Program-made: the position numbers and the translations under genes
Shown here: positions 1-60,418 of the stretch, piece by piece
Numbering within the stretch: position 1 is the stretch's first letter
How the letters are laid out: each line of letters begins with the position of its first letter
Source: Clostridia bacterium
GTDB lineage: Bacteria > Bacillota > Clostridia > Oscillospirales > CAG-272
Assembly: GCA_017621085.1 (NCBI GenBank)
Contig: JAGATW010000028.1
Span: 4,107-68,106, forward strand
Direction: 5' to 3'
Length of the DNA: 64,000 bases
Notes under the pieces: generated by a model
Databases searched by the model: none
What the model saw: only the letters and a program-made list of their open reading frames with translations
What the model was told of the DNA's origin: nothing

Positions 1-1779
1 AATTGTAGATGTTTCTCCTACATATACCACCTCAATCTTGTTATCATCGAGGAATTTAACTGTAGCCAAGCCTTCGTTTTCTTGGTTATATCCTACATAA
101 TATCCTGTCATTATTTCGTTGATATCAGGAGCTTCCTTAACTATGATTTCAAGCTCACAGGATACATTTTCAACCTTTGTAGAAGTTAACTTAACTACAT
201 ATGTGCCCGGGTTATATGCAATAAAGGTTGTAACCTCCTCGCCATCTATCTCATCACTTGACAAGTATGCCACCGATTCTGCAACATCTCCCAATATTTC
301 AGCAGTATATGAGCCATCATAATTTACGCCCGCATATGCCTTGAAGTTCAGAATCTTGTTAACATACATCTCAACATTCTCCACCTCATTAAACTCATTG
401 TATGACTCATCGTAAACCTCAGCACTGATACTTGTAGGTGGTAATAATGCCACATTTATGGTTGATATGGTTTCTATGCCATCAACAGTAATTACAAGGG
501 TATATGAGCCAGGTGAGCTTAACGGGAATGAGTATGTCAGTGTTTCTTTATCGTATATTGGAAATATCCATGGGTCAGATTTGGTGTCGTCATTATTGAA
601 CACCTCAATAGAGATATCACATAATGAAAGAATAGCTGTCAAGGGTTCTATTTCTGTAAACTGAAGTTTAATTGTCTCGTTTGCTTCAACCTCTATATCG
701 TATTCCTCGATATCCCTGCCGTTACCGTCGGTTATGATATATGAATACAACTTTATTGCACTGGAGCTATAAATGTTCTCTTTAGGCTCATTTTCGTTTG
801 TTGTGCTTTGAGTCATTGTACATTCATAGTCATTGTACTCACCGGTAGATGTTACTTTTGCATCAGAAATGATGCCCTCCTCATTGATAGTGAAGCTAAC
901 ACTAACATCACAACCATTCATCGTCAAGCCAAAGCCGACAACATTTCCATCAACTGTTCCAACCTTCGCTGCCGGATCATCACCGCTTATAACAAGACTA
1001 TACAAGTCTAATATAAAGTCGCTAACGCCGTATGATGCATTTTCATAATCTTGAGCAAATACATAGTTTATTTTAGCACCACCAAAGTTTTCCTCGGTTG
1101 CCACCTCATCAGGAAGACACGCCTTACCTGATTGAACCATTATTGCAAAAACATTATCATCTTCATCATATGAATAGTAATACTCGTTTGCATAGTCGTT
1201 ATTCTCATTCACATATGTAAATCCCTCGCTGATTTCATACCATGATGTAGTGAGGGTTGTTCCTAACGATAATTTACTGTATGTGCTTGTTTCGATTTTT
1301 CCAAATACAACCTTGTAACTGTTTGTGCGAACAATCTCTATTGCCTCAGCCAATGTAGAAAATGCCGGAAGCTTAAAGTATCCGCACTCGCAATTTCCAG
1401 TTTCATCAAAATCATGTGGTTCTACATCTTTTTTTGCATCATCATGTTCACATGTAGCCTTGTAATAATGATTTGTATCATCATAGCTAAGCTTGTTTTC
1501 GTAAGTATGCTCATGCACTTCCGGTTCATCCGGCTTTGAGCCCGGCGTCGAGCTCTCCGTTGAATCAGGTGTTGAGCTCTCTGTCGAATCAGGTGTAGAG
1601 CCTGTCGTTGAATTAGGTGTTGAAGCCTCAGTTGAGCCCGGTGTTGAGCTCTCTGTTGTGTCCGGTCTTGAGCTTTCTGTTGTAGGTTTGCTTGACTCAG
1701 TGGTGTTTTCGTCACCACATGCTACCAAGCATAAGGCTACAATCATTAAGCACAAAACCAAATAAATAAGCTTTTTCAT
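1..1779 (-). CDS. Large surface lipoprotein, N-terminal part only (3' end lies beyond the window start); paralog of 43743..46928
   Basis: Absent from the ORF track because it has no stop in the window. My translation from the ATG at 1777..1779 gives MKKLIYLVLCLMIVALCLVAC (lipobox), then S/T/P-rich 8-aa repeats. It continues VHEHTYENKLSYDDTNHYYKATCEHDDAKKDVEPHDFDETGNCECGYFKLP, which aligns with HEHTFATEYSYDEENHYYAATCEHSDEKSGVEAHSYDAAGNCKCGYFKLP of copy B. The frame was spot-checked open at 1..60, 601..660 and 1021..1080. Confidence 0.8.
   Translation of the reverse strand, partial: MKKLIYLVLCLMIVALCLVACGDENTTESSKPTTESSRPDTTESSTPGSTEASTPNSTTGSTPDSTESSTPDSTESSTPGSKPDEPEVHEHTYENKLSYDDTNHYYKATCEHDDAKKDVEPHDFDETGNCECGYFKLPAFSTLAEAIEIVRTNSYKVVFGKIETSTYSKLSLGTTLTTSWYEISEGFTYVNENNDYANEYYYSYDEDDNVFAIMVQSGKACLPDEVATEENFGGAKINYVFAQDYENASYGVSDFILDLYSLVISGDDPAAKVGTVDGNVVGFGLTMNGCDVSVSFTINEEGIISDAKVTSTGEYNDYECTMTQSTTNENEPKENIYSSSAIKLYSYIITDGNGRDIEEYDIEVEANETIKLQFTEIEPLTAILSLCDISIEVFNNDDTKSDPWIFPIYDKETLTYSFPLSSPGSYTLVITVDGIETISTINVALLPPTSISAEVYDESYNEFNEVENVEMYVNKILNFKAYAGVNYDGSYTAEILGDVAESVAYLSSDEIDGEEVTTFIAYNPGTYVVKLTSTKVENVSCELEIIVKEAPDINEIMTGYYVGYNQENEGLATVKFLDDNKIEVVYVGETSTI
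1531..1704 (-). repeat. Seven tandem 24-nt (8-aa) S/T/P-rich repeats in the linker of the copy-A large lipoprotein
   Basis: The translation reads TTESSKP-TTESSRPD-TTESSTPG-STEASTPN-STTGSTPD-STESSTPD-STESSTPG. Confidence 0.8.
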
Positions 1780-1799
1780 CCTTTTATCTCCTTATAAAA

Positions 1800-3518
1800 T
1801 CACTCGTAATACCCACATGCAAATAACCACTGGTCATCCTCTGTGGACTCATATGGTGGATTTCCGGTTTCTGCCCATCCGTCTCCATCCATAAATAAAA
1901 CTTGGTTTACCGAATACTTCTGCAAGAAATCCTTTAGTTCTTTTGTGACAGGCACTGCTCCGTCGCTATTGATTATGGACGCATATCCAATCAAACCAAT
2001 ATAGTCTTCAGAGCATTCAATCATACCTCCGTAAACCGACATCGACATTGACTGAGCGGAATCGTAGCTCTCTATAAAGAACTTGTAGTTCTCTGTTCCG
2101 TTAGAAACGGTCAATGCTTTGTTTCCCTGATACTCCACGGTTGTGAAGGAACGGTCCAGCACCTTCGTTCTTGCCGAGACTGTAATATCCGCATATATTA
2201 TTGGTCCGTAGCCGAAGCCGAAGCCATCCTCTGAATCATCGGTATATTTTGTTTCATCATATCTGTGATAGAATCCTGTTTTTTCATTATACCGATAGTT
2301 ATCTCCTATCAAAACGACTCTACCATTAATAGTTGTTGCAGGATTTACCCAAGTTTTACCAACATCGGCACCGTAAATCCTATTAAAGTATGACTTTAGG
2401 TGTTGAACGCATTGCCCGCGAATAAATTCATGCTTATTTAAGAAAATATTCAAAGCTAATCCATCGCTTAACTGCGCGCCTGTCAATGCTTGTAGCTCGT
2501 TGTACGACTCTTCTGTCGCAAAGCTATATTCATTCAAAAAATCTTCCTTACTTAAGGCTCTCATTTCCAATAGCTTATCAGCCATTATATCATACAGCTC
2601 ATTTGGAATAACATAGTCTGAGCTTGTATGCTCTAACTCAAAGCCACCCTCATACTGAACTGCAAAATCTACATTCAAGGGAAAATACTTTTCATTTCTT
2701 GCTGTAGCATAAATTGAAAATACAAAAACGACTTGTCCTCCACCGCTTGTAGAAATCATCTCGTCTGCTATTTCAACCTCATACTTGAAATTCTTAGTAT
2801 AATTCTCGCCTTCAGTTCCACCTGTGTCCAGTGTGTACAGATATATCGGAGCTGCAAAGCTACTTGTATAAACATCTATTTTTGGGTTAATCTTATCATC
2901 GGATGTCGAAACCCAGGATTCAATTGTATAAGTACCACTCTTAGTAGGTCTGAATTCAAAATATAGCTTCTGTTGTGCATTTTTTAGTGTGGCTCTGTAC
3001 ATACTGGTTGCTGACAGCTCTTTCCTGCTATACAGTCCCGAGCCTGCTCCCTTTGTTGTACCTATTTTATAGATATCAATTCTAACATTAGGCTTATCAT
3101 TTGTAGCCTCGTAAATGTTAGGGTTATATGTATAACCGTCAGGAATGTTATCCAGTGTTACTCTGTAATCTCCGTCAAGACCGTACATTACAGCTATTCC
3201 ATTTTCATTGACCGGAGCGGAAATAAACGAAATTCCATCTGTCCACTTAACCTTGATGGGTGACTCGGTATCTCCGGCAAACGGTAAACCGTTATACATA
3301 AGATAAACAGAAAACTCGCTTACTTCCTCACCCGGCTTGTCAGTGTCGGGGCTTTCTTCTTTTCCACTGCTCTCGGTTGTATCATTCGGTTTAGAGCTTG
3401 GTGTTGTTTGCTCACTAGATGATGTTGTGGAATCTTCTCCACCTGTATCGCCGGTATTACATCCAAAAAGCATCATAGCAAAGACTATTAACAAAAGTAT
3501 AGAAATAATTCTTTTCAT
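1800..3518 (-). CDS. Lipoprotein, 572 aa, beta-rich, function unknown (module component; paralog of 47024..48751)
   Basis: Signal peptide with lipobox (LLLIVFAMMLFGC), then an S/T/E/P-rich linker. Beta-sandwich-like blocks follow (DGDYRVTLDNIPDGYTYNP; TKSGTYTIESW). ATGA overlap with the upstream gene. Colinear and highly similar to the copy-B protein over its full length, including the C-terminal QWLFACGYYE. Confidence 0.85.
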   Translation of the reverse strand: MKRIISILLLIVFAMMLFGCNTGDTGGEDSTTSSSEQTTPSSKPNDTTESSGKEESPDTDKPGEEVSEFSVYLMYNGLPFAGDTESPIKVKWTDGISFISAPVNENGIAVMYGLDGDYRVTLDNIPDGYTYNPNIYEATNDKPNVRIDIYKIGTTKGAGSGLYSRKELSATSMYRATLKNAQQKLYFEFRPTKSGTYTIESWVSTSDDKINPKIDVYTSSFAAPIYLYTLDTGGTEGENYTKNFKYEVEIADEMISTSGGGQVVFVFSIYATARNEKYFPLNVDFAVQYEGGFELEHTSSDYVIPNELYDIMADKLLEMRALSKEDFLNEYSFATEESYNELQALTGAQLSDGLALNIFLNKHEFIRGQCVQHLKSYFNRIYGADVGKTWVNPATTINGRVVLIGDNYRYNEKTGFYHRYDETKYTDDSEDGFGFGYGPIIYADITVSARTKVLDRSFTTVEYQGNKALTVSNGTENYKFFIESYDSAQSMSMSVYGGMIECSEDYIGLIGYASIINSDGAVPVTKELKDFLQKYSVNQVLFMDGDGWAETGNPPYESTEDDQWLFACGYYE

Positions 3519-6190
3519 TTTGCTTTTCCTCCTATACCACCGATATTAAAAAAGCTCTTAATATCATTGAGTTTGATTTTTCTGATTATTACATCAATGA
3601 CATAAAGCACTATTGCTAACGCCATCAGATAAATAGTGTAATAGTAAACATATGTATCGACTTCGTTTTCGTCGTTCTCTATTTTCAATTCACCATTTTC
3701 ACTAACCGTACCATCTACAATAGCATTGTATAGCAAGCTTGCATCAAAAATCTCAAAGCTATTGTATTCCGGCTCATATGCAACATCAAAGCTTGTGTTA
3801 GCCTCAAATGATTCCTCACCGTATTCATACACCACTTTAAGCTTATATTTGCCGATAAAGCTTGAATCAAAGCTCATCTTATATGAGCCTGCAACATAAT
3901 ACAGTGTGTTTTTCGTTTCATCTCCGTTTGGACTTACAAGAGTCACGGAAACTATAACATCAGGATTATTCTCCGCGGGTATAATTTCCAAAACAGAGCC
4001 CGATGCGCTGTGAATCACATCTATCATAAAGGGATAGTCAATTCTTTCCTTCGGTGTATTGGTAATCAATATTCTCTGATACACCTCTGTTGCATTATTG
4101 TCATCCTCCCAGTCCTCTACCCACTTACCTGAGAAGGTAGTGGAAATTGATGTAACTCGTCCATCTCCATAATTCCAATAGGAATATATAGGAACTCTCA
4201 CAACATCTCCGGAGGGCTTTTCATAATCAACCGATAGCACCACCGTAACATTACTCTTTACCTTGCCGTAATAGTATCCTTTTATGTTTGGAAGACTAAC
4301 TACTCCATCTACCAAAGGATCATTGTAGTCCTCAATGTTTACAACGGTATCATTCTCTATCACCGATTGTGTTATATCATCTGCTATATCAGTTGATACA
4401 ACATCCTTTACAGCCTCAGGTGACTTTACATAATAGTACTTACCACCACCTGATTTTTGAATTCTTGTAAGGAAATCCGCGCCTTCATCGCTGGCTGTAT
4501 TTATGACTGATGTGTAGATGCCGTTTCTCTTCATTGTTGAGGCAATTGAAATTGCGTCATCTCTTTCATTAACGGCAGCATATGAACGGCCATCACTTAT
4601 GAGCATTACATATTTCTCGGAGAATGGCTGTTCCTTCATCTGCTCATATGCTACTCTCAAGCCTGCGCCCAAAACCGTTCCTTGTGTGGGCTTAATGGAA
4701 TTTATAATTTGTATTATCTCTTCCTTGTGTATCAAAGAGGTTGGTCGCTGAGCAATTGTAACCTCACCCGAAACAGTTATAACCATTACATAGTCAGTCT
4801 TAGACATCATATTGAGTAACTGTATAGCGGATTCCTTTGCCATAATAAGCTGTGATGCATCCTGCATACTTCTTGATGAATCTATTACCAATGCGTACAG
4901 CTTCGGATCTCCATCGGAATTACCATACTTTATCGCAAGCATATCTTCAAGAGTTTTGTAAATCTCATCGTCCTGATTTTGTATAAAGGTATTACCTGCT
5001 GTAATTAGGCTTTTTCCAAATTTAGATACAACCACATCCAGGTTATGAAGAAATGTAGTTGTGTTCTCTATTTCCTTAATATCCATATCAGAAATAATGA
5101 TTTCGTCATATTTGCAAAGCTCCTCGATGCTATAAGGAACAGGCTCCTTACGCTTTAACAAAAGCGGGGCATATATCTCTGCCTTCTCTTCATATAGCTC
5201 CTCTGCTCTTCTGAGATCTGATTTGGTTTTAGAAATCAAAAGCACCTGTAGCTTTTCTGTTATGGTCTGAGTAAATGCGTGAACATTATTTTTATCCGAA
5301 ACATCGTGGTTTGCATCCACTACTACCTTATAATCAAAGCTGCCACCCACGGATGTATCTAGCTCAATATTTACTATATTGAAGCCCTTTTGCAATTGTT
5401 TGGTTACTTCAGCCTTCAAGTTGCCTTCACTGTCAAACAATCTTACAAATGCATCATTCTTATCATTTTTGTTTCCCAAATTTGGAATATAATCAGAATT
5501 TGACTGTATTAAAACCTGAAGCGTTGATTTGTGATTAAGATATGTAGAAGGAGTATAATCAATATCATTGATTTGAACCTCATAGTCACCATCCTTAAGG
5601 TTACTGTCCACATATATTGCATCAATATAAATATTCTGTGTCTCCAACGCCTTTACAGCCGAAATCAGTCCTCCGGCAGTTGTTCCACTATTCTCCTTGC
5701 TATCAGTAATCAAAACAATTCTCTTAATTGCATCCTCAGAAAACATTCCTGCTGTGTATTCAAGTGCAGAGGCTATATCTGTCTTGCTGGTATCCACTGT
5801 ATTATCAGATACGGTGGTAAAGATACCTCCCAGATCCGTCAAGAGCTGTTGATCCTTGCCAAAGCACACTACTCCAACCTTGGAATTAGGTGGCAAATTT
5901 CCATCAAGATTTCTTATGTATTCATCTATTTGCTCATAGTTTCTGCTTGACGAATACGAAACATCTGCAACTACAAAAACCTCTGTTTCGGTCTTCACAG
6001 TTGTCTGGTGCAATCCGGAAAACGCAACCGACACTACTGCTACTATAAACAAATGAATTATCAAGGAAGCTATTGTGGATTTACTCTTATTTTCCTTCTT
6101 AATTGCCAGTATGTAAGGAATGATAGTAAGAAGTAAGAGCGGTATAGCTATTAAAAGCAAATACGGATTATCTAAGCTGATACTTTTCAT
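3515..6190 (-). CDS. Membrane protein with BatA-type N-terminus and two vWA (MIDAS) domains
   Basis: The ORF track gives 3515..6217. I moved the start to the ATG at 6190 (MKSISLDNPYLLL) by alignment to the paralog start MTSISFDNPYLLL. This reproduces the same 23-nt overlap with the upstream gene seen in copy B. DxSxS MIDAS motifs are VVADVSYSSS and LVIDSSRSM. C-terminal TM helix YYTIYLMALAIVLYVIDVII. Confidence 0.85.
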   Translation of the reverse strand: MKSISLDNPYLLLIAIPLLLLTIIPYILAIKKENKSKSTIASLIIHLFIVAVVSVAFSGLHQTTVKTETEVFVVADVSYSSSRNYEQIDEYIRNLDGNLPPNSKVGVVCFGKDQQLLTDLGGIFTTVSDNTVDTSKTDIASALEYTAGMFSEDAIKRIVLITDSKENSGTTAGGLISAVKALETQNIYIDAIYVDSNLKDGDYEVQINDIDYTPSTYLNHKSTLQVLIQSNSDYIPNLGNKNDKNDAFVRLFDSEGNLKAEVTKQLQKGFNIVNIELDTSVGGSFDYKVVVDANHDVSDKNNVHAFTQTITEKLQVLLISKTKSDLRRAEELYEEKAEIYAPLLLKRKEPVPYSIEELCKYDEIIISDMDIKEIENTTTFLHNLDVVVSKFGKSLITAGNTFIQNQDDEIYKTLEDMLAIKYGNSDGDPKLYALVIDSSRSMQDASQLIMAKESAIQLLNMMSKTDYVMVITVSGEVTIAQRPTSLIHKEEIIQIINSIKPTQGTVLGAGLRVAYEQMKEQPFSEKYVMLISDGRSYAAVNERDDAISIASTMKRNGIYTSVINTASDEGADFLTRIQKSGGGKYYYVKSPEAVKDVVSTDIADDITQSVIENDTVVNIEDYNDPLVDGVVSLPNIKGYYYGKVKSNVTVVLSVDYEKPSGDVVRVPIYSYWNYGDGRVTSISTTFSGKWVEDWEDDNNATEVYQRILITNTPKERIDYPFMIDVIHSASGSVLEIIPAENNPDVIVSVTLVSPNGDETKNTLYYVAGSYKMSFDSSFIGKYKLKVVYEYGEESFEANTSFDVAYEPEYNSFEIFDASLLYNAIVDGTVSENGELKIENDENEVDTYVYYYTIYLMALAIVLYVIDVIIRKIKLNDIKSFFNIGGIGGKAK

Positions 6191-8044
6191 AACAATACAC
6201 CACCCATTCTGCCACAAATATAACAGCTAAACATATGAAAAACACTATAAGCTCATCATATATTGCATCCAAGCCGCCCTCTCCTGCTTCTCCTGAAAGA
6301 CCAATTCTTTCCTCAGGCTCAGTAACAGGCTCTCTTTCTGCCTCTGGCATAGCAGAATAGATATAAAACTCTCTTGGTTGTCCTGAAATCATTGCTGTAA
6401 TTTTATATGTTCCAACCTCATCAAGCTTTAATTCGCTTACTGTGTTGTGAACACTCAAATGCGTTACATTATTCATTGGAGTGTCCACTCTGATGCTCTC
6501 ACAATTCGCTATTACATTAATCTGCGCATTTTCTCCGCAGTAGTACGACGTTTTCTCAATAACTACGGGGAAAGAAAAATCCAACAGATTTTTTACCAGC
6601 ATAACATAATCAGCCAGCAACGGCATATCCGAATCATGCAGGTCAAACGCAAATACAACCTCACGATTACCATAGGTATTTGCACCCGTAAATATAAGAG
6701 GATTACCCTCATGAGTAAACAGAGTGCTGAAGTTTCTATACACATCATACTTTGAATATTTTGATATGTATATCTCGCTTCCGTCCACATTTTCAAGTAG
6801 CTTTTTTATCATCGTTGCGCTTGCTTTTGACTTAACAATAGTCTCTGCCTTGTCAAGCTTGTTCTCTCCTTGATAGTTAAATCCGGAGTTCTCTATGCTC
6901 TTCGTCGTGTTGATTAACCAAACGCTTCCGTCCTTCGGGACAGCTTTTGGGTTGCAGGAATGGAATATATACAAGCCGTATCCTGTTATATCCCTGCTTT
7001 CACCATCTTCTTTCTTTAAATACTCATCCGGTGTCATAACCTTTACATCGGCATTACTTACTACATCTAATACCGTTTCCAAGAAAAACGGAGTATCACT
7101 TACGAGAAGAGTCTTGTATGAGTTTTCGCTTTTCACATTGAAAATGACGCTTTCATTGTCGAGCATCAATCCATCTTCATTAGTTATTCTCACCACTGCC
7201 TTCTGAAATTTCTCCAAATCAACCGACAATTCAAATTCTGATGGCTTTTCCTTTGAAACCTGAAGCTCTATAGACTTTGACACAGAAATCTCATCATTCA
7301 CAAGTAGTTCAACTGTAACCGTACCGTCGTTTTGATAAGACACAACCTTTCCTTTTACAGTTAAAACATCGTTCATTGTATAGTCGTATTCCACTTCGGT
7401 TAACGCATAGTTATTGCATGCACTGCCAACATTTATGACCTCAATATTATCAGTAGCATTATAGCTATTGTCCGTTATCAAGTAAGTTTTCACGCCGGGA
7501 TTTTCATTAAAGTAGCTTTGTGCTTTATTTTGAGCGCTACCAAAGTTCTCTTCAACGAATCCAACCTTCAGCTCATCTAAAAGCAATAGAGCCTTTTCTT
7601 TATCAGCTTCTCTCTCAAATACGGTAATAGTTTCGCTTCCTACGCACAACAGCGTATAAGTGCTTCCTTTTTGGCATCGGAGATAAGCTCTGATATTTCA
7701 TTTTTACCAATCTCAAATCTCGTCGTTTCTTCCGCACTCTTTATATTCATGCTTCCGCTTGCATCAAGAACAAAGCAATATTCCTTAGCGGCATTTGGCA
7801 CAGTTATAACAGGATGCGCAATTGTAAGAGATATTATCACTATCGCTAAAATCTGTAAAATTAAGCTGATAATTCCGGTTAGCTTGTTATCCCTCTTCCT
7901 TTTCTTTAAAAACCTTTCGCTAAGCGTCCAAAGATAGGTAGCTGAAACTGTTTGCTCCGTGTATTTGCTCTTGATTATATATATCAAAATCAAGATTGGT
8001 ATTCCTATTAATCCCAATAGTCCTAAGGGGTACAAAAAGCTCAT
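6168..8044 (-). pseudogene. BatA-like TM-vWA protein gene interrupted by a frameshift (intact paralog at 51416..53284)
   Basis: ORFs 7640..8044 (134 aa) and 6168..7649 (493 aa) are together colinear with the 622-aa copy-B protein. The N-terminus is MSFLYPLGLLGLIGIPIL with MIDAS motif FVLDASGSM. One extra base in the T5 run at 7668..7672 (A5 on the coding strand) would join the frames. The joined reading ..DAKKGSTYTLLCVGSETITVFE matches ..GNGSLYTLICVDNNTTTVFE in copy B. Confidence 0.7.
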
Positions 8045-8925
8045 TTCAACACCCCTTTCTCAATAAGCTTACCAAAGAATATGTCACTCATAGAATCTTC
8101 CGTTGACACAAGAAGATAATTTGCCCCTCTGGAGCCACATATATTACTGATTCTTTCAGTAACATAGTTGAGTGCTTCTTTGTATGCTTGTAATATTTCT
8201 CTTTTTATATTTTTTCTGTATGTTTTTTCAACATTTTCCGAATCAAAAAGATGAACCTTACCTCTGATTTTTGGATATAACTCTTCCGGAGATAAAACCT
8301 GTATACAAAAAACATCTCTTTTTTTGTCTGCCAAATGGTTTATAGCATTTTCGTAATCATTGTCGGTCAAAAAGTCCGAAATAATCACCGACATACCATC
8401 TCCATACCCTACATTTGTTGGGATAATCGCATCGCTTATAAAGCTGTCTCCGCCAAATTCAATTTCATTAAGCTTGCCGATTTCGGACAAAAAGGAATCC
8501 TTACCCACGATACCTGAAACAATTTCAAAAACCTGCTTGTCCTTAAGAGCAAATATAGAAACCTTATCCATTTCCGCCAAGGATAGATATGCTATGGTTG
8601 CCGCTATCCTTATTGCATGGTCGGCTTTATCGCCCTTTCCGTATTCCATTGAACGGCTTGTGTCTATGTATATCTTAGTGTGCATCTGCCTTTCATCCAA
8701 AAACAGCTTTTGATAAAGCTTATCAAATCTGGCATACGCATTCCAATCTATTTTGGTTATATCATCACCGGGAATATAATCACGATAATCAGCAAACTCG
8801 CAGGAAGAGCCATAGGTTTTACTTTGATGAGTTCCACCAAATAAGCCCGCTACATTGTTTTTAATCAAGGTTTGCAGTGATTCAATCTGTTGCAAAAACT
8901 CCTCATTGATTATTGCGTTTCTCAT
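8041..8925 (-). CDS. DUF58 family protein (vWA-like partner of MoxR)
   Basis: Hallmark block FADYRDYIPGDDITKIDWNAYARFDKLY. ATGA-type 4-nt overlap with the downstream gene. Paralog at 53281..54165, also 294 aa. Confidence 0.85.
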   Translation of the reverse strand: MRNAIINEEFLQQIESLQTLIKNNVAGLFGGTHQSKTYGSSCEFADYRDYIPGDDITKIDWNAYARFDKLYQKLFLDERQMHTKIYIDTSRSMEYGKGDKADHAIRIAATIAYLSLAEMDKVSIFALKDKQVFEIVSGIVGKDSFLSEIGKLNEIEFGGDSFISDAIIPTNVGYGDGMSVIISDFLTDNDYENAINHLADKKRDVFCIQVLSPEELYPKIRGKVHLFDSENVEKTYRKNIKREILQAYKEALNYVTERISNICGSRGANYLLVSTEDSMSDIFFGKLIEKGVLK

Positions 8926-8939
8926 ATTTTAATTGGCCC

Positions 8940-9938: not shown

Positions 9939-9964
9939 TTCCTATTTCCTCATTCCTTGAAATC

Positions 9965-11431: not shown

Positions 11432-11468
11432 CGTTTTTCCCCCTTTGAACGATATATATATTTTTAAT

Positions 11469-11497
11469 ATTTTATCATATTAATATAGCAAAGTCAA
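11469..11497 (-). promoter_or_regulatory. Predicted sigma-A-type promoter of the copy-A MoxR operon
   Basis: On the minus strand: TTGACT, 17 nt, TAAAAT, about 40 nt upstream of the start codon at 11431. Confidence 0.5.
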
Positions 11498-11612
11498 GAA
11501 ATATTTCCTTATTTACATATATTTAACAGAATGTAAAAGACGGATTAACATTGTTTTTCTTTTTGAAGCCGATGCTCTCCATATTCGCCGAAATTTTTTT
11601 ACAATTTGAAAG

Positions 11613-11641: not shown

Positions 11642-11699
11642 TGTTTATATTCAGTTTATTTTGCTGATGTATGATTTTCACCGAGTGATGGAGGGATTT

Positions 11700-15111: not shown

Positions 15112-15114
15112 ATT

Positions 15115-53284: not shown

Positions 53285-54165
53285 TTCAATACCTCCTTTT
53301 CTACCATCCTGCCAAAGAAGACATCGCCCATTGAGTCCTCAGATGATACTAATAGGTAATGTGCGCCTCTTGATGCACAAACATTGCCTATTCTTTCTTG
53401 AACATACTCAAGCGCTTTTCTGTACGCTTGCATTATATCCTTTTTAATATTCTTTCTGTAAATCTTTTCAGCAGATTCAGAGTCATACAAATGTACCTTA
53501 CCTCTGATTTTCGGATTAAGCTCGTCCGGCGACAAAACCTGAATACAGAACACATCTCTTTTCTTATCGGCTAAGTGGTTAATAGCACTTTCATAATCGT
53601 TATCTGTTAGAAAATCAGAAATAATTACCGACATACCATCGCCATAGCCAACGCTTGATGGAATAACGGCATCACTAATATAGCTATCTCCACTAAACTC
53701 TAAATCGTTTAGCTTGCCTATTTCGCCAACATAAGAGTCCTTTCCAACCATACCGGAAATAATTTCTATTATCTCCTTGTTACGTATAGCATAAATGGAA
53801 ACCTTGTCCATTTCGTTAAGAGAAAGGTATGCAACCGTTGCGGCAAGTCTTAGTGCTTGCTCTGCCTTATCGGCTCTACCATATTCCATTGAACGGCTTG
53901 CATCAATGTATATCTTGGTGTGCATTTGACGTTCGTCAAGATAAAGCTTTTGATAAAGCTTATCAAAACGAGCATATGCATTCCAATCTATTTTGGTTAT
54001 ATCATCACCCGGAATATAATCACGATAATCAGCAAACTCACAGGATGAGCCGAAGGTTTTACTTTGGTGAGTTCCACCAAACAAGCCTGCAACATTATTT
54101 TTAATAAGCGATTGCAATGCTTCTACCTGCTGTAAAAATTCCTCGTTGATTATTGAATTCTTCAT
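53281..54165 (-). CDS. DUF58 family protein
   Basis: Block FADYRDYIPGDDITKIDWNAYARFDKLY. 294 aa. 4-nt overlap with the downstream gene. Confidence 0.85.
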   Translation of the reverse strand: MKNSIINEEFLQQVEALQSLIKNNVAGLFGGTHQSKTFGSSCEFADYRDYIPGDDITKIDWNAYARFDKLYQKLYLDERQMHTKIYIDASRSMEYGRADKAEQALRLAATVAYLSLNEMDKVSIYAIRNKEIIEIISGMVGKDSYVGEIGKLNDLEFSGDSYISDAVIPSSVGYGDGMSVIISDFLTDNDYESAINHLADKKRDVFCIQVLSPDELNPKIRGKVHLYDSESAEKIYRKNIKKDIMQAYRKALEYVQERIGNVCASRGAHYLLVSSEDSMGDVFFGRMVEKEVLK

Positions 54166-54177
54166 TTTTGCTGACCT

Positions 54178-55161
54178 TTATTTCTTTTTTGTTTCTTTCA
54201 CAAGTAAATCAATTACATCATCAACAGTCAGCTTTTCATTTACGGCAGTATAATTGATTTTAATTCTATGTCTTAATACAGGACGTGCAAGTGCTTCGAT
54301 ATCCTCATATGAAACATTAAAGTTGCCATTTATGAGCGCTCTTACCTTAGCACAAGTAATTAATGCCTGTGCAGCACGTGGAGATGCACCGTATTTAATA
54401 TATTTCTTTGTACAATCAGGAGATTTTTCAAGCTCTGCGTGAGTGTTAGATACAAGCTTAACTGCATACTTAACAACATCATCAATAACCGGAACCTGAG
54501 AAGCAAGCTGTCTCATTTCAAGAATTGTAGGTCCATCTACAACTGCTTGAGCATTTTCATCAAGTGTGATTTGTGTCATGTTTACAATGTCAACAAGCTC
54601 TTCATCGCTTGGGAACTTCATTATTAGCTTAAACACAAAACGGTCCATTTGCGCCTCCGGCAATGGATATGTACCGTCCTGCTCAATTGGGTTCTCTGTT
54701 GCAAGCACAAAGAATGGCTCCTCAAGGTCATATCTATCGTTACCGACTGTTATTTTATGCTCCTGCATTACTTCAAGCATAGCAGACTGTGTTTTTGGTG
54801 TTGCACGGTTAATTTCGTCAGCTAAAACAAGATTTGCAAAAATAGGGCCTTTACGGAAGGAGCTTACCATTTTTCCTGTTGCATCCTTTTCAATTACATT
54901 TGTACCTGTAACGTCAGATGGCATAAGGTCAGGAGTAAACTGTATTCTTGAGAATGGTAGGCTAAGAGTTCTACCAAGAGAACGAACTAAACGTGTTTTA
55001 CCAACGCCCGGTACACCCTCTAAAAGAACGTTACCGCCTGCTATAATTGCGATTATTACATTATCTACGATTTCATTTTGACCTACAACGTCCTTGCGAA
55101 GCTCTGCTTTGATTAAGCTAACTGTTTCACTAAACTTTTTTACCTTTTCCATGTTTTCCAT
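54178..55161 (-). CDS. MoxR-family AAA+ ATPase
   Basis: Walker A GVPGVGKT and Walker B LVLADEINR. By eye, about nine of ten residues are identical to the copy-A protein. Confidence 0.9.
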   Translation of the reverse strand: MENMEKVKKFSETVSLIKAELRKDVVGQNEIVDNVIIAIIAGGNVLLEGVPGVGKTRLVRSLGRTLSLPFSRIQFTPDLMPSDVTGTNVIEKDATGKMVSSFRKGPIFANLVLADEINRATPKTQSAMLEVMQEHKITVGNDRYDLEEPFFVLATENPIEQDGTYPLPEAQMDRFVFKLIMKFPSDEELVDIVNMTQITLDENAQAVVDGPTILEMRQLASQVPVIDDVVKYAVKLVSNTHAELEKSPDCTKKYIKYGASPRAAQALITCAKVRALINGNFNVSYEDIEALARPVLRHRIKINYTAVNEKLTVDDVIDLLVKETKKK

Positions 55162-55184
55162 ATCATTAATTTCCTTTACTTTTC

Positions 55185-56675
55185 TTAATTTTGACCACCT
55201 TGAGGTGTTATTAGTACCGAATAATACTTCCTCAAGATTTCAGCTAATTCCTCAGAAATTTCGCCATTGCGTAGCATTTCTGTAATTTTGGATTCGTAAT
55301 TTGCAATAACCTCACCATACTGAACGTTTATGTTGTCAACGTTTCCAGCCGGCTCTTTGTCCTTGTCTATAACTATATCGTCACTACCAAAAATATTTCC
55401 ACCTGCACCGTATCCACCGTCTTCACCAACTTCCGGTCTGTCCTCCGGCTCGGTAGTTTCAAAATCATCATTTTCGTCGGTTTTTTCCTTAATATCATCC
55501 TCGGTAATACCGAATATACGCATAAGCTCGCTTACTACACGGTCTTTTACGTCATTATTGACTTTTTCCTGTGGTATAATCTTCTTAAGCTCACCAATCG
55601 CTGTACGATTAAAAGCTTCATCAATTTTAGAAAGAATGTTTTCATCTGTATATGTTCTTTCAACAATCAGAGTTAATGAGTCGTTTAGTGCTTTCAGCAC
55701 TCCATACAGTCCATCTTCCTCGCCAAGTCCCGAGTTACGAATAATTGCACCTAATTCATCATTAAAATCTGCAATGTCATCCTTGCTGCCGCCAAGCACA
55801 AACAAGCCTGAGCTAATTGATACGAACTCAGTTTCAATTACACTCATATTCAAGCTATATAAGGCAAGACTAAGCTTCTTTATGCTACTATTTGAATTAT
55901 CCTTAGCAAGCATATGTACTTTAAATGTTGAGCTGGCTCCATTTACATGGGCACGCACCGCTTTGATTACACCAACTACATATTCCTTCATTTGAGATTG
56001 CATTCTCAAATTATCAAGCTCTGAAAGCAATACATTCAGCTCGGATAGAACATTTGCCTTAACGTCAGCCTGCATATTTGATTTTTCAACCTCTTGAATT
56101 AAAGCCTCAAGAGCGATTCTTTGATGGTCGGTAGGAGTAAACTCCTCATCCTCATCATCCTCACCACCCTGTTGGGTGTCATCACCCGGGTCATGTGTGG
56201 GGGTATTCTCCTCACTTTTAAATGCTACAACTATGGCTGTAACAAGGTATGCTGCACAGATAACAAGAGCAACAAAAAAAGCAACTAATCCTTTTAGCAA
56301 GCCAAGCATATTGGTTGGTTTGCTATCGAGGATTTTTATTGCATCCTCTCTTTGAAGAAGCTTAATATCTCCATCGTCATCCAAAAAGGCGTGCATTGTT
56401 TGAATTTTTTCTCTTAAGCCATATGTATTATCAAGCTTTTTTGCCAGCTTTTTATCATTTGGCTTGAGAACAAAAAACGTGCCAAGTCCTAAAAGTAATC
56501 CAAAAGCAACACCTGTAAGAACTGCGTAAACCATATTAAAGTCAAGCTTTTTAAGCGTGGTTACAATTAGGAAGGTTGCAACGACAAGTAAGACGGCACA
56601 GATGCCTGTAAGAATAGCCTTTATAACAGCATCTAACACATATTTTTTCTTAAAGCGTTTAAAGCTCTCACCCAT
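55185..56675 (-). CDS. Three-TM membrane protein with an acidic helical C-terminal domain (first gene of the copy-B operon)
   Basis: The ORF track start is 56693. AAAGGAGGA lies inside that extension, so the ATG at 56675 or 56678 (MGESFKRF, compare copy A MGEGFKRF) is the likelier start. Confidence 0.75.
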   Translation of the reverse strand: MGESFKRFKKKYVLDAVIKAILTGICAVLLVVATFLIVTTLKKLDFNMVYAVLTGVAFGLLLGLGTFFVLKPNDKKLAKKLDNTYGLREKIQTMHAFLDDDGDIKLLQREDAIKILDSKPTNMLGLLKGLVAFFVALVICAAYLVTAIVVAFKSEENTPTHDPGDDTQQGGEDDEDEEFTPTDHQRIALEALIQEVEKSNMQADVKANVLSELNVLLSELDNLRMQSQMKEYVVGVIKAVRAHVNGASSTFKVHMLAKDNSNSSIKKLSLALYSLNMSVIETEFVSISSGLFVLGGSKDDIADFNDELGAIIRNSGLGEEDGLYGVLKALNDSLTLIVERTYTDENILSKIDEAFNRTAIGELKKIIPQEKVNNDVKDRVVSELMRIFGITEDDIKEKTDENDDFETTEPEDRPEVGEDGGYGAGGNIFGSDDIVIDKDKEPAGNVDNINVQYGEVIANYESKITEMLRNGEISEELAEILRKYYSVLITPQGGQN

Positions 56676-56713
56676 CATTGTTCCTCCTTTCATTTTTTAT
56701 AATATTATTTATT

Positions 56714-56742
56714 ATTTTAACACAAATATATAATGGTGTCAA
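56714..56742 (-). promoter_or_regulatory. Predicted sigma-A-type promoter of the copy-B MoxR operon
   Basis: On the minus strand: TTGACA, 17 nt, TAAAAT, with extended TGt. Confidence 0.5.
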
Positions 56743-56904
56743 GGCGAAAATTACAAAATATACTTTTTTCCACTTTTTTAGACAAAAATGTAAAAATATG
56801 ACGATGGATTTCTTTTTCATCAATTTTGAATTCTCGTTTAACTTTTTGTCGTGAATAGTTTTGTTTCAGTTTAGCATCGTTTTGTAAAATTGTTAAAAAT
56901 AATA

Positions 56905-56933
56905 TTGATAAAATTGTAAATGTGTGTTAAAAT
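56905..56933 (+). promoter_or_regulatory. Predicted promoter of the copy-B two-component/plsY operon
   Basis: TTGATA, 17 nt, TAAAAT, with extended TGt. Confidence 0.45.
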
Positions 56934-56963
56934 GTTAATCTATCGTAAATAAGGAGGGATTAT

Positions 56964-57638
56964 ATGTTCAACATACTGGTAGTTGACGACGACAAAAACA
57001 CTCGTTTGTTTCTAAAGGCAGTTTTAGAGGATGCCGGATATACTGTTTATACTGCTAACAACGGAGTTGATGCATTAAACGTTATGGATTCTGAGCATGT
57101 TGATTTAGTTGTGCTTGATGTTATGATGCCGATTATGGATGGCTATGAGCTTACCAAAATTTTGCGTCAAAGCCAAGATAATCTTCCTATACTTATGATT
57201 TCCGCAAAGCAGCTTCCCAAGGACAAGCATATGGGCTTTTTAGCAGGAACTGACGACTACATAACCAAGCCAATTGATGATGAAGAAATGCTGTATAGAA
57301 TCAAGGCACTTTTGCGTCGTGCAAAAATTGCAAGCGAGCATAAAATTTTCATTGGTGATGTTGTATTGGATTATGATTCATTAACTGTAACTAAGGGTAG
57401 TGAGATAATGGAGCTTCCTCAAAAGGAATTTTTGCTTTTATTTAAGCTTCTCTCATATCCCGGCAAGATTTTCACACGCATACAATTAATGGACGAAATA
57501 TGGGGTGCTGATAGCGAAACCGGTTGGGAAACTGTAACCGTACATATTGGCAGGCTGCGTAAAAGGTTTGAAGGCTGGGATGAATTTCAAATAGAGGCTG
57601 TTCGTGGTCTTGGCTACAAGGCGGTGAAAAAGCAATGA
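56964..57638 (+). CDS. OmpR/PhoB-family response regulator
   Basis: Start MFNILVVDDDKN follows AAGGAGGGA. Same motifs as the copy-A regulator. Confidence 0.9.
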   Translation: MFNILVVDDDKNTRLFLKAVLEDAGYTVYTANNGVDALNVMDSEHVDLVVLDVMMPIMDGYELTKILRQSQDNLPILMISAKQLPKDKHMGFLAGTDDYITKPIDDEEMLYRIKALLRRAKIASEHKIFIGDVVLDYDSLTVTKGSEIMELPQKEFLLLFKLLSYPGKIFTRIQLMDEIWGADSETGWETVTVHIGRLRKRFEGWDEFQIEAVRGLGYKAVKKQ

Positions 57639-58705
57639 AATACACAAACAAAAAAGATCAAAGCAACATAAGAAGACTAACCCTTATATTTTCTTTGATT
57701 GTTTTGGCTGTTCTTATTGTTGTTTTGGGACTTTCCTCTTTAGCGGCTTTTATACTAATTGAGGTAGGAGTTATTTCTCCCGAGGAGGGTATAGGCACAT
57801 CTCATATTATTTTATTTATGGCAATATCAAGTGTAGCCCTTGGTACTATCATATCAATCATTGCAAGCAAAATGATTTTAAGCCCACTTAATATGGTTAC
57901 ATCAAAAATCAAAAGCCTTGCAAATGGTAATTTTGGAACAAGAGTTGATTTTGATGAAATTGTTAGTCGTATGCCTTCTTTTTTAGAGCTTTCAACTGTG
58001 TTTAACAAGCTCTCCGAGGAGCTTCAAAACACTGAAATGCTACGAAGCGATTTTATTAACAACTTTTCTCACGAGTTTAAAACACCTATTGTTTCAATTG
58101 CCGGCTTTGCAAAGCTACTGAAAAAAGGAAATTTGACAGAGGAGCAAAAGGAGCAATATATCACTGCTATTGAAGAAGAGTCTATGCGACTTTCCTATAT
58201 GGCAACGAATGTATTAAATTTAACCAGAATCGAAAACCAATCTATTCTTTCCGATGTTACAGAATTTAATGTATCAGAGCAAATTCGTTCCTGTATTCTT
58301 CTTTTAGAGCCGAAATGGTCAAAAAAGAAGCTTGATTTTCAGTTTGAGCTTGATGAATACACCCTTGTTGCAAGTGAGGAGCTTTTAAAGCAAGTGTGGA
58401 TTAATTTAATTGACAATGCAATTAAGTTTTCTAATGACAGTGGTACTATTTCTATAAACGCTATTGAAAAAAAGAATGCTTTGTCTATTTCCATAACAAA
58501 TTACGGCTTTGATATTCCAAAGGAAGCTATTCCAAAGCTTTTTAACAAGTTTTATCAAGCAGACGCTTCACACTCAACCGAAGGCAACGGAGTTGGGTTG
58601 GCTATTGTAAAAAAGATAGTAGATTTACATAATGGTAGCATAAAGGCTACAAGCGAGAATTTAGCAGTCACCCTTACCGTTACCATGCCGAAAAATATAT
58701 ATTAG
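57635..58705 (+). CDS. Sensor histidine kinase (intramembrane-sensing type)
   Basis: ATGA overlap with the response regulator. H-box FSHEFKTPIVSI, N-box NLIDNAIKFS and G-box GNGVGLAIV. Confidence 0.9.
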   Translation: MKYTNKKDQSNIRRLTLIFSLIVLAVLIVVLGLSSLAAFILIEVGVISPEEGIGTSHIILFMAISSVALGTIISIIASKMILSPLNMVTSKIKSLANGNFGTRVDFDEIVSRMPSFLELSTVFNKLSEELQNTEMLRSDFINNFSHEFKTPIVSIAGFAKLLKKGNLTEEQKEQYITAIEEESMRLSYMATNVLNLTRIENQSILSDVTEFNVSEQIRSCILLLEPKWSKKKLDFQFELDEYTLVASEELLKQVWINLIDNAIKFSNDSGTISINAIEKKNALSISITNYGFDIPKEAIPKLFNKFYQADASHSTEGNGVGLAIVKKIVDLHNGSIKATSENLAVTLTVTMPKNIY

Positions 58706-58717
58706 GAGATAACTTGA

Positions 58718-59404
58718 ATGAATAGTTTATTAAAGGCTTTAATATGCATAGCATTAGGCTATTTTATTGGCACGATTAATCCTTCATATTTGATTGCTAA
58801 GATAAAGGACTTTGACATAAGAAAACGTGGTTCCGGTAATGCAGGGGCATCAAATGCACTAATTGTTTTTGGCAAGGCTGTTGGCATTTTTTGTGCGCTT
58901 TTTGATATTTACAAGGCGTGTCTTGCAATAGAGCTTGCAAGACGTGTGATTTTCCCCGATTATAGTCTTGCTTTCATTATTACAGGCACAGCTGCAATCA
59001 TTGGACATATGTACCCATTTTATATGAAATTCAAGGGTGGCAAGGGACTTGCTTGTCTTGGTGGTGTTGTTTTGATGTATGACTGGAAATTCTTTTTAAT
59101 TCTCTTAGCAATTGAAATCATTGTTGTTCTTGCAACTGACTACATATGCTTTGTTCCTATGACTGCATCTATTATCTTCCCTATTGCGTATGGTATTTTT
59201 GAAAAATCCTTTCATAGCGCTTGCATTTTCTTGTTTGCAACTGTATTGATTTTGTTTAAGCACGCAGAAAACATTATTAGAATCAGAAACAAAACAGAGC
59301 TTCACTTTAGCTACCTTTGGAACAAGGAAAAGGAGCTTGAGAGAATGAATGAAAGTGATGTCAACATAGATGTTTCTAAGGATAATGAGGAAAACAAAAA
59401 ATAA
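58718..59404 (+). CDS. plsY: PlsY-family glycerol-3-phosphate acyltransferase paralog
   Basis: Blocks GSGNAGASNA, KFKGGKGLACLGG and HAENIIRIRNKTE. Starts 12 nt after the kinase stop, with AGGAGA upstream. Confidence 0.8.
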   Translation: MNSLLKALICIALGYFIGTINPSYLIAKIKDFDIRKRGSGNAGASNALIVFGKAVGIFCALFDIYKACLAIELARRVIFPDYSLAFIITGTAAIIGHMYPFYMKFKGGKGLACLGGVVLMYDWKFFLILLAIEIIVVLATDYICFVPMTASIIFPIAYGIFEKSFHSACIFLFATVLILFKHAENIIRIRNKTELHFSYLWNKEKELERMNESDVNIDVSKDNEENKK

Positions 59405-59410
59405 TTTTTT

Positions 59411-59442
59411 GAGGATGAGGCGAATTTTGTCGTTTTATCCTC
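59411..59442 (+). terminator. Hairpin between plsY and the lipid kinase gene, copy B (terminator or attenuator)
   Basis: Stem GAGGAT / ATCCTC followed by TTTTTGTTTATTTTTAGTTTATTTTTGTG. An extended -10 (TGgTAATAT) follows near 59480..59488. Confidence 0.45.
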
Positions 59443-59511
59443 TTTTTGTTTATTTTTAGTTTATTTTTGTGTTTTATTATGGTAATATAGATTCTTTAAG
59501 GAGATGATAAT

Positions 59512-60384
59512 ATGGGCAAGATTTACGCACTTTTTAACCCTCTTTCAGCAAATAAATCAGGTGAAGAAAAGGCAAATAAGCTAATTGGCTTTTTTCCTGG
59601 GGAGGATATTGATTTTGTTGATATTACTAAGATTAACAATTATAAATCCTTTATTGATTTTTTAGAGTCTGATGATAGAATTGTAATTTGTGGTGGAGAT
59701 GGCACAATAAATCGTTTTGCAAATGAAATTTTTGATTTAAAAATAAAAAATGAAATTTTATACTACGCAACCGGATCAGGCAATGATTTTTTACGTGATT
59801 TAGAAAAAAATGCTGAAGATGGTCCTGTTTCACTAAACGAGCATTTAACAAATTTGCCTGTTGTAACTGTTAAAGGTAAAGATTATCGTTTTATTAATGG
59901 AATTGGCTATGGTATTGATGGCTATTGCTGTGAGGTTGGAGATAAGCTAAGAAATTCTTCAGCTAAATCAATAAACTACACATCTATTGCAATTAAGGGA
60001 CTTTTGTTCCATTATAAGCCTACAAATGCTACTGTTTATGTAGATGGTCAAAAATATGAATTTAAAAAGGTATGGATTGCACCAACTATGGTAGGTAGGT
60101 TTTATGGTGGTGGCATGATGCCTGCACCTAAGCAAAACAGAAACGATAGATGTGACCACGTTTCTCTTTCATTGCTTTATGGCTCAGGTAAATTGAAAAC
60201 CTTAATGATGTTTCCTTCTCTTTTTAAGGGTGAGCATGTTAAATATAAAAACCATGTTGCTATATTTACCGGAAAGAATATTACCGTTGAATTTGACAGA
60301 CCTGTTGCTTTGCAAATTGATGGCGAAACAATTCTTGATGTTTCAAGCTACGAGGTTAAATTAGGAGTACACGCCAAAATATAA
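59512..60384 (+). CDS. Diacylglycerol-kinase catalytic-domain lipid kinase
   Basis: Motifs ICGGDGTINRF, YYATGSGNDFLRD and LQIDGE. Confidence 0.8.
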   Translation: MGKIYALFNPLSANKSGEEKANKLIGFFPGEDIDFVDITKINNYKSFIDFLESDDRIVICGGDGTINRFANEIFDLKIKNEILYYATGSGNDFLRDLEKNAEDGPVSLNEHLTNLPVVTVKGKDYRFINGIGYGIDGYCCEVGDKLRNSSAKSINYTSIAIKGLLFHYKPTNATVYVDGQKYEFKKVWIAPTMVGRFYGGGMMPAPKQNRNDRCDHVSLSLLYGSGKLKTLMMFPSLFKGEHVKYKNHVAIFTGKNITVEFDRPVALQIDGETILDVSSYEVKLGVHAKI

Positions 60385-60387
60385 GCT

Positions 60388-60418
60388 AAAAAGCACACTA
60401 TGACTTTAGTGTGCTTTT
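60388..60418 (+). terminator. Terminator after the copy-B lipid kinase gene
   Basis: Stem AAAAGCACACTA / TAGTGTGCTTTT. Confidence 0.75.

Follow-up and report, generated by a model that had tools for sequence, protein, structure and literature searches.

In the genome of an uncultured gut or rumen Clostridia bacterium of the Oscillospirales (lineage CAG-272; GCA_017621085.1), a block of 22 genes is present twice, in direct orientation, at a single locus. The window analysed here, a 64,000-nucleotide stretch of contig JAGATW010000028.1 (positions 4,107 to 68,106; about 37% G+C), contains the whole of one copy, copy B, the right-hand part of the other, copy A, and the single-copy spacer between them. 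The block includes a seven-gene Bat-like operon, a two-component system and the genes of the acyltransferase PlsY and a lipid kinase. The initial annotation had regarded the copies as a paralogous pair, a term that implies duplication within the genome. The comparison with one-copy relatives and the phylogeny of the genes point to a different origin for copy A. Judged by its divergence from relatives, copy B is vertically inherited, or at least has a common history with its right flank, while copy A is read here, with about even confidence, as a xenolog that came from a related but distinct lineage and was added beside the resident copy B.

The repeated block

Self-BLASTN of the window returned five colinear matches, pairing 1804..15073 with 47028..60364 at 66.7-77.8% nucleotide identity. 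All 11 gene pairs of 1..15111 and 43743..60384 are reciprocal, with order and orientation kept, an offset of about 45.2 kb and 43-90.5% protein identity. These results bear out the direct orientation and near-constant 45.2-kb offset described in the initial annotation, and its landmarks (MoxR stops at 8940 and 54178, response regulator starts at 11700 and 56964, lipid kinase stops at 15111 and 60384) are correct. The 11 pairs that it described as a 16.7-kb module are colinear, but the repeated unit is larger: the full block has 22 common genes and spans about 25-28 kb. The start of the window cuts copy A, and copy B occupies 32046..60384, with 11 further genes to the left of the part previously noted. 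The partners of these left-arm genes lie left of the window start, on contigs that are identical to the window across the overlap. The gene order to the left of the large lipoprotein of copy A is that of the window from 40604 down to 32046, a pyridoxal phosphate (PLP)-dependent enzyme excepted, and the left-arm pairs (copy B against the genes left of copy A in L052 and L056) have 50-90% protein and 64-71% nucleotide identity. What had been taken for 28 kb of accessory genes between the copies is really a single-copy spacer of 16.9 kb (15112..32045) and 11.7 kb of copy B.

Closer relatives, found by protein searches and contig look-ups, are denoted sp2a/sp2b, sp2c, sp5, sp6, sp8 and spX; the nearest species are GCA_017461055.1, GCA_052848595.1 and the organism of L068. 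The genes of the two copies are as follows (TM, transmembrane; percentages under copy A are protein identities to the copy B partner unless stated otherwise).

Copy A
1..1779, minus strand: 5' part of the large lipoprotein unk1033, signal peptide with lipobox; partner 43743..46928 (43%); in tblastn, 100% to residues 1-593 of unk1033 of L052 and 37% to copy B
1800..3518, minus strand: unk572 lipoprotein, lipobox signal peptide, no family match, a singleton in the 90% clusters; 61% to 47024..48751
3515..6190, minus strand: double-VWA membrane protein of 891 amino acids, Pfam VWA_2/VWA twice, two N-terminal and one C-terminal TM helices; 61%
6168..8044, minus strand: BatA-like VWA membrane protein with a BatA N-terminal domain, split here into 6168..7649 and 7640..8044; 61-74%
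8041..8925, minus strand: DUF58 protein (Pfam DUF58, E=3e-29); 80%
8940..9938, minus strand: MoxR AAA+ ATPase (Pfam AAA_3, E=1.5e-61, and AAA_lid_2); 90.5%
9965..11431, minus strand: first gene of the operon, membrane protein of 488 amino acids, three predicted TM helices, no family; 44%
11700..12374, plus strand: OmpR-type response regulator (Pfam), divergent from the operon; 83%
12371..13453, plus strand: histidine kinase (Pfam), two TM helices and a loop of about 13 amino acids; 73%
13453..14127, plus strand: PlsY acyltransferase (Pfam); 66%
14233..15111, plus strand: YegS/DAGK-type lipid kinase (Pfam), right end of copy A; 62%
Beyond the left edge of the window, in order: NUDIX, MgtC, 2-thiouracil desulfurase-like, Hydrolase_3, unk201 (201 amino acids), PLP-dependent enzyme (PALP; 457 amino acids, L056 11453..12826, copy A only), FKBP-like lipoprotein, unk236 membrane protein, M14, three GDSL, tRNA-Gly/Arg/His

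Copy B
32046..34001, minus strand: three GDSL esterases (Pfam), left end of copy B
34077..34985, minus strand: M14 peptidase
35102..35833, plus strand: unk243
35830..37221, plus strand: FKBP-like lipoprotein
37542..38147, minus strand: unk201
38161..38886, minus strand: Hydrolase_3
38883..39317, minus strand: 2-thiouracil desulfurase-like
39449..40093, plus strand: MgtC (Pfam, E=5e-37), 80% to that of copy A
40137..40604, minus strand: NUDIX
40659..43553, minus strand: LRR_5 (BspA-type) surface protein of 964 amino acids (Pfam LRR_5), 75-78% to sp2, not in copy A
43743..46928, minus strand: unk1061 large lipoprotein
47024..48751, minus strand: unk572 lipoprotein
48751..51438, minus strand: double-VWA protein
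51416..53284, minus strand: BatA-like protein (PF07584 BatA, E=2e-10; VWA_2, 2.4e-9), TM helices at 6-24 and 58-76
53281..54165, minus strand: DUF58 protein (E=3e-29)
54178..55161, minus strand: MoxR (AAA_3, E=5e-60)
55185..56693, minus strand: memb502, first gene of the copy B operon
56964..57638, plus strand: response regulator (Pfam, NCBIfam)
57635..58705, plus strand: histidine kinase (Pfam, NCBIfam)
58718..59404, plus strand: PlsY (Pfam, NCBIfam)
59512..60384, plus strand: lipid kinase (Pfam, NCBIfam), right end of copy B

The copies differ in content by two genes. The LRR_5 gene is found only in copy B (and in sp2), copy A running from unk1033 straight to the NUDIX gene, and the PLP-dependent enzyme is found only in copy A. 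At its true left border, copy A adjoins three tRNA genes; the window itself has no tRNA gene. On the right, homology stops at the lipid-kinase stop codons (15111 and 60384) and the terminators beyond are unrelated, just as had been noted. The borders had also been described as free of mobile-element signs. As far as genes are concerned this stands, since none of the open reading frames (ORFs) of at least 100 amino acids in the window gave a match to a transposase or integrase domain (Pfam), but the borders then visible were not the true ones. Apart from coding homology, the four borders have no repeat of at least 15 nucleotides in common, and searches against known plasmids and phages, including one with window 8000..32000, gave no similarity.

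Synonymous sites are saturated between the copies (proportion of synonymous differences, pS, 0.65-0.83 by the Nei-Gojobori method), and the ratio of nonsynonymous to synonymous divergence (dN/dS, same method) is 0.05-0.16 where dS is computable. Both copies are intact and under purifying selection. The strong divergence, and the view of the pair as old and maintained, were thus correctly read from the letters. The longest tract identical between the copies is 35 nucleotides, only five tracts reach 26 nucleotides, and 200-nucleotide windows have a median identity of 70% and a best value of 88.5%. Because the exact tracts are this short and the median identity this low, recombination between the copies, which had been proposed as a possible cause of deletion or amplification of the intervening segment, is unlikely to drive such changes. 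Recent gene conversion between the copies was considered and rejected on the same best window and longest tract.

The arrangement is not an assembly artefact, because independent metagenome contigs carry both junctions. Contigs from other samples reproduce copy A with the spacer (window 1..19938) at 99.97% identity, and the spacer with copy B (30187..47221) at 98.9-99.9%. Together with the saturated dS, this agrees with the initial annotation, which had set aside both an artefact and a recent duplication. The sole structural difference from the other contigs is a one-nucleotide homopolymer deletion near 7668-7672 (five T here, six in L001), which splits the BatA-like gene of copy A into ORFs of 134 and 493 amino acids. 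The gene is intact (625 amino acids) in L001, L002, L052 and L053, with one gap in the blastn alignments for L001, L002 and L052; the split reflects a sequencing error or else an inactivation specific to the strain.

Some genes of the block deserve separate mention. The best-conserved protein is unk201 (90% between the copies, 99% to sp2, dN/dS 0.008); it has no family and only a weak HD-domain match under lenient Pfam settings (E=0.014). The GDSL esterase triplet is an old tandem set, present in every relative whose contig holds that part of the block. One strain contig (L065 1860..4477) has four copies, the middle gene being duplicated, so copy number varies within the species. A 182-amino acid ORF on the minus strand (39370..39918) is spurious, and the real gene there is the plus-strand MgtC.

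Relatives and the ancestral layout

A scan of species-representative genomes gave 41 loci, all in Clostridia metagenome-assembled genomes (MAGs). The loci that are uncut by contig ends have an identical seven-gene operon order; in two of the 41, identity is as low as about 25%. Among the closer relatives, each contig holds one block. To the right of the lipid kinase in sp2, sp5 and sp6 there is a beta-lactamase-family gene followed by a CrtO-like gene, as after copy B (for sp6, this flank was seen on other contigs with the same BatA-like protein), and in sp8 and L005 the right side of the block has the beta-lactamase gene and a homolog of u556. To the left of the first GDSL gene, sp6 and spX have tRNA-Gly, tRNA-Arg and tRNA-His. 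Further left of these tRNAs, spX has a C39 peptidase and LigA, matching the arrangement left of copy A; sp2b has the C39 peptidase and the same tRNAs, with the tRNAs inverted and 5 kb from the block. A scan of the JGI metagenomes for left-flank relatives, based on the M14 alignment, gave only two short contigs.

The ancestral layout is LigA, C39 peptidase, tRNAs, one block and the beta-lactamase/CrtO-like flank. The layout here is the left flank with the tRNAs, copy A, spacer, copy B and the right flank. The ancestral left junction is thus preserved at copy A and the right one at copy B, and the new junctions are that of the lipid kinase with u264, at 15111, and some point between there and the spacer gene PNPOx. 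The tRNA genes adjoin copy A on their 5' side. Because the same junction between tRNAs and GDSL genes is found in the single-copy sp6 and spX, it is ancestral and not the junction of an island.

The gap between tRNAs and block is a variable hot spot: in sp2b (L060 719..1024) it has 5 kb with AraC and LRR_5 genes. In sp6 (L058 3761..5176), a TnpV gene and a metal-ATPase cassette are located just left of the tRNAs.

Divergence and composition of the two copies

Copy B is 79-99% identical to sp2 across the 22 genes (mean about 89%), with 85-98% in the operon, 88-96% in the arm from response regulator to lipid kinase, and a total dS of 0.8. The right flank is at a similar level, at 87-89% identity and a dS of about 1.0 (89% and 1.0 for the beta-lactamase gene), and sp2c carries the junction of PNPOx and the first GDSL gene found at copy B. 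It is because of this uniform sp2-level divergence, flank included, and of the junction in sp2c that copy B is taken as vertically inherited. The large lipoprotein gene of copy B (43743..46928) has a dS of only 0.27 to its counterpart in sp2b (L060 17647..20616), other genes having about 0.5-1.9, which suggests a more recent exchange of this gene between the present species and sp2b.

Copy A has no such partner. In a concatenate of eight genes and 3730 columns, it is 65-68% identical to B, sp2, sp5, sp6 and sp8 alike; among themselves these species share 65-70%, and with the outgroup L005 60-63%. For the response regulator, histidine kinase, PlsY and DAGK-type kinase, copy A is 70-72% identical to B, sp2, sp5, sp6 and sp8, while these are 78-83% identical mutually. 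The identity of copy B is 89-91% with sp2 and 70-83% with sp6 and sp5, against 65-72% of copy A with all of them. Among 5.8 billion proteins, no A-type ortholog of the BatA-like protein was found between 67% and 100% identity, whereas that of copy B has orthologs at 87-90%.

The left arm gives a clearer signal. The FKBP-like protein of copy A groups with spX, outside the clade formed by B, sp2, sp5, sp6 and many more distant lineages. It ends in KTYTSISEAQ, as in spX and the outgroups; within the B clade most proteins end in Y[VI]FDA[KQ] and none has the KTYTSI motif. Over six left-arm genes, the quartet joining A with spX and B with sp6 was recovered in 500 of 500 bootstraps, with nearly all of the signal coming from unk243 and the FKBP-like gene. 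For these two genes, spX is the closest to copy A, at 71% and 59% identity (B to A: 60% and 50%); overall it is 72% identical, with its core genes off the contig. The seven core genes are star-like, and neither neighbour-joining trees nor quartets resolve them.

Base composition also differs between the copies. The mean G+C content at third codon positions (GC3) is 0.375 in copy A and 0.314 in copy B, and is higher in A in 20 of the 22 pairs (Wilcoxon p=1.2e-5). The single-copy flanks are B-like (LigA 0.323, C39_2 0.320, beta-lactamase 0.296, CrtO 0.266, u556 0.307), and the PLP gene of copy A (0.40) and the left part of the spacer (0.35-0.44) are A-like. Relatives have 0.35-0.49, with sp2 at 0.38; relative to sp2, copy B and its right flank are lower by an equal amount, about 0.07. 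Since co-resident paralogs with saturated synonymous sites should share their GC3, this argues that copy A spent much of its history in another genome.

Origin of copy A

The transfer, its direction and its recombination route are inferred, and would have taken the following course. Donor DNA carrying the tRNAs, block A and perhaps downstream cargo would enter the cell and be anchored by homologous recombination at the tRNA cluster or further left. The right end would then be closed by an illegitimate join upstream of the resident block, that is, by homology-facilitated illegitimate recombination. The tRNA genes are near-identical in A, spX, sp6 and sp2b, with few positions differing, and for this reason would offer a ready anchor across lineages; the left crossover may also lie further left of them. 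Homology at one end and an illegitimate join at the other is a described mechanism (PMC3240628). The xenolog addition reported there also has one conserved anchoring flank, the resident version beside the incoming one, direct orientation and neither integrase nor att sites. In the present case the segment is larger (about 25 kb and 22 genes, possibly with cargo) and far more diverged, and the event is inferred. Incoming homologous clusters are likewise reported beside resident ones in the immunity-gene arrays of the type VI secretion system of Vibrio cholerae (PMC5361080). An island of the integrase type was considered and rejected, there being no integrase or recombinase gene and no att-like repeats.

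Several observations weigh against a foreign origin of copy A. No donor lineage was found, spX being only 72% identical to copy A, and no integration scar (integrase, att repeats) was found at the four borders or in copy A, the spacer and the flanks. For the relatives, the evidence of a single copy comes from fragmentary metagenome contigs. The two copies differ only modestly in GC3, and part of this difference could be due to codon selection. In unk1061, the double-VWA gene and the BatA-like gene, core site patterns slightly favour A with B, an excess that would fit an old duplication on the stem leading to the present species and sp2, followed by faster evolution of A. Finally, the C39 peptidase left of copy A is only 73% identical to that of sp2b and LigA has no relative at or above 90%; in the 90% clusters neither of these flank genes has a close relative. 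The left flank may thus share the history of copy A, or copy B and the right flank may be the immigrants.

The strongest alternative, a serious rival although judged less likely, is an ancient tandem duplication in place, at the start of the radiation or early on the sp2 stem, followed by loss of the A-type block in relatives and by faster evolution of A in some genes. It predicts what is seen at the flanks, namely a left copy with the left flank and a right copy with the right flank, and it is in keeping with the failure to find mobile-element genes and with the unresolved core quartets and their slight A+B excess (119/103/68 and 113/103/79). Moreover, sp2b is rearranged exactly at the would-be site of copy A, where the inverted tRNAs, with 5 kb of other genes present, may be the trace of a deletion. 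The pair also resembles an ordinary tandem segmental duplication in its direct orientation, single locus, gene order and purifying selection on both copies; it differs in that the arm genes are not mutual closest relatives, the composition differs and the second copy is not found in relatives. Such a duplication would require the loss of A in sp2 and probably also in sp2c, sp5, sp6 and sp8, and no A-type protein was found in the database. It would also have exposed both copies to a single mutational background; with synonymous sites saturated, their GC3 values nonetheless differ in 20 of 22 genes. The FKBP-like gene of A keeps the ancestral C-terminal motif that has been replaced in the whole B clade, A is farther from B in the right-arm genes than sp5 and sp6 are, and the C39_2 flank is at 73% to sp2b instead of about 89%.

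A transfer in the reverse direction appears improbable. Here copy A and the left flank would be native, and copy B, PNPOx and the right flank would come from a relative of sp2, anchored in the right flank. This would explain why the left flank, like copy A, is without a close relative (C39_2, LigA) and why divergence is at the sp2 level throughout B and the right flank. Composition speaks against it: B (0.314) has the same GC3 as LigA, C39_2 (both 0.32) and the right flank, whereas A has 0.375 and sp2, the supposed donor type, has 0.38. With a dS of 0.8 to sp2, any such transfer would be old.

A recent duplication with very fast divergence, or an assembly merging two strains or species, deserves hardly any credence: the homopolymer frameshift in copy A shows that the assembly is not error-free, but four other species are as close to A as B is, dS is saturated, both junctions recur in contigs of other samples at 99-100% identity, and a nucleotide identity of about 70% is too low for an assembler to collapse the copies or join them in a chimera.

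The Bat-like operon and its linked genes

The seven genes of the operon encode a three-TM protein, MoxR, a DUF58 protein, a BatA-type VWA protein, a double-VWA protein and two lipoproteins. In both copies the DUF58 gene is directly downstream of moxR on the same strand, and the double-VWA protein has the topology of the BatA-type protein, with two N-terminal TM helices and one at the C-terminus. By its core definition, this is a Bat-like MoxR/DUF58/VWA operon. The BatA-like protein of copy B scores 22.1 bits against TIGR02226 (two_anch), just under the cut-off of 23.05 bits. No TPR domain (BatC/BatE) or BatD domain scored above threshold in any operon gene (Pfam); under lenient Pfam settings, unk572 has a sub-threshold match to a BatD DUF11-like domain (E=0.16). 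Sequence searches of the PDB with unk572, unk1061 and unk201 gave no significant match, and an AlphaFold2 model of unk572, built on a two-sequence alignment of copies A and B, has a mean pLDDT (predicted local distance difference test) of 43.

Across the loci examined, only the closest clade and L005 show linkage of the two-component system to the operon. PlsY and the lipid kinase are linked to it in the closest clade, with PlsY missing in sp8. The histidine kinase, having two TM helices and a loop of about 13 residues, is presumably of the intramembrane-sensing type known from envelope-stress systems. Copies A and B have almost the same dimerisation and histidine phosphotransfer (DHp) helix in their kinases and almost the same recognition helix in their regulators. 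Because the residues that set partner and DNA specificity are near-identical, the two modules are probably subject to cross-talk and co-regulation, as isoforms of one envelope or lipid-homeostasis system. An alignment of the divergent promoter region across six loci showed promoter-like elements only and no clear binding repeats.

By analogy, MoxR would remodel or mature the membrane-anchored VWA proteins on the cytoplasmic side. The complex would act in envelope or membrane-lipid homeostasis under the control of the adjacent two-component system, a role suggested because the operon is linked to a system of the intramembrane-sensing type, to PlsY and to a lipid kinase.

In Bacillus subtilis, the yeaC-yeaD-yebA genes form a MoxR-DUF58 cluster that has a transglutaminase-like membrane protein and is not known to include a BatA-type VWA protein. 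The PFNA cluster of Bifidobacterium (PMC8430577) is similar to the present operon in having MoxR and DUF58 beside an envelope protein in a Gram-positive host, and is unlike it in having a transglutaminase-like membrane protein, FN3 and a kinase and no BatA-type VWA protein. Also among the closest known types is the Bacteroides aerotolerance (Bat) operon with its relatives in Spirochaetes and Flavobacteriia (PMC3557215, PMC5700661, PMC11834572). The two have in common an AAA_3-type MoxR followed by DUF58, then a BatA-type protein (double TM and VWA) and a further VWA membrane protein in one operon. The link to a two-component system has a precedent, in Riemerella, where PhoP regulates the bat operon (PMC11834572). 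By contrast, the host here is of the Gram-positive-type Clostridia, BatC/BatE were not found and BatD is not recognisable; in their stead, there are the double-VWA protein, the three-TM protein and two large lipoproteins without a family, and the closest clade joins the operon with PlsY and the lipid kinase in one conserved neighbourhood. The literature on a role of Bat proteins in aerotolerance and stress is contradictory (PMC3557215 versus PMC11834572), and in Leptospira the deletion of all bat genes gave no phenotype (PMC3557215).

Spacer and flanks

The remaining genes of the window are present once only:
15112..32045: spacer, with u264, CotH, HAD, GH2, GH123, HTH (helix-turn-helix) regulator, GH29, GH3, three XRE-type HTH and PNPOx
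31492..31980: PNPOx, within the spacer, counted to the inherited context of copy B
60502..63963: right flank, with a beta-lactamase-family protein, a CrtO-like acyltransferase and u556

At the loci of relatives, no homolog of the spacer genes was found except for PNPOx, in L068. The GH3 beta-glucosidase (26221..28377) belongs to a 90% cluster of 77 members, of which the 14 compared are 96-100% identical. These are spread over many assemblies, some of them MAGs with the label Ruminococcaceae or Oscillospiraceae. Across assemblies, the beta-glucosidase is far better conserved than its neighbours. The glycosidase cluster may therefore be a cassette that has spread separately and recently.

Near 28.4 kb there is a sharp break in composition, and 28609..31223 holds three adjacent XRE-type HTH regulators, one with TPR repeats, at 29-33% G+C and a GC3 of 0.21-0.27. 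These have no homologs at the loci of the closest relatives, with weak N-terminal HTH matches in the distant L024 and L027. To the left of the window, about 1.5 kb left of the tRNAs, L056 3887..4228 encodes a stand-alone HTH_23/HTH_7 protein of 113 amino acids that is similar to the DNA-binding domain at the N-terminus of transposases and invertases (PHROG 1157, E=1e-7). No other possible remnant of a mobile element was found near any border of the repeat.

Implications

The evolutionary process considered here is a known one, and the genes make up a new clostridial version of an operon type already described. Current understanding is not overturned. It can be proposed tentatively, at somewhat less than even confidence, that a 25-kb, 22-gene piece of the core chromosome was imported from a diverged relative and stably added next to the resident homolog without mobile machinery, resulting in a lasting partial 'hybrid diploidy' in which cross-regulated isoforms of an envelope system are kept by selection. 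Such a piece would include plsY, an essential-type gene of lipid synthesis, a two-component system and the seven-gene MoxR/VWA operon.

Should the xenolog reading of copy A be true, the locus would be a clean natural example of a known idea, operon 'duplication' that comes about not by copying but by adding the version of a locus found in a relative, and one that involves a large block of ordinary chromosomal genes without a mobile element. It would also show that flank synteny, equal distances to other species and base composition serve to distinguish xenolog pairs of this kind from true paralogs. A further outcome is the definition of a seven-gene Bat-like operon that is conserved in gut and rumen Clostridia and uncharacterised. 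In the closest clade it is linked to a two-component system, PlsY and a lipid kinase, which suggests that systems of this type, unsettled in function in every phylum, take part in membrane or envelope homeostasis.

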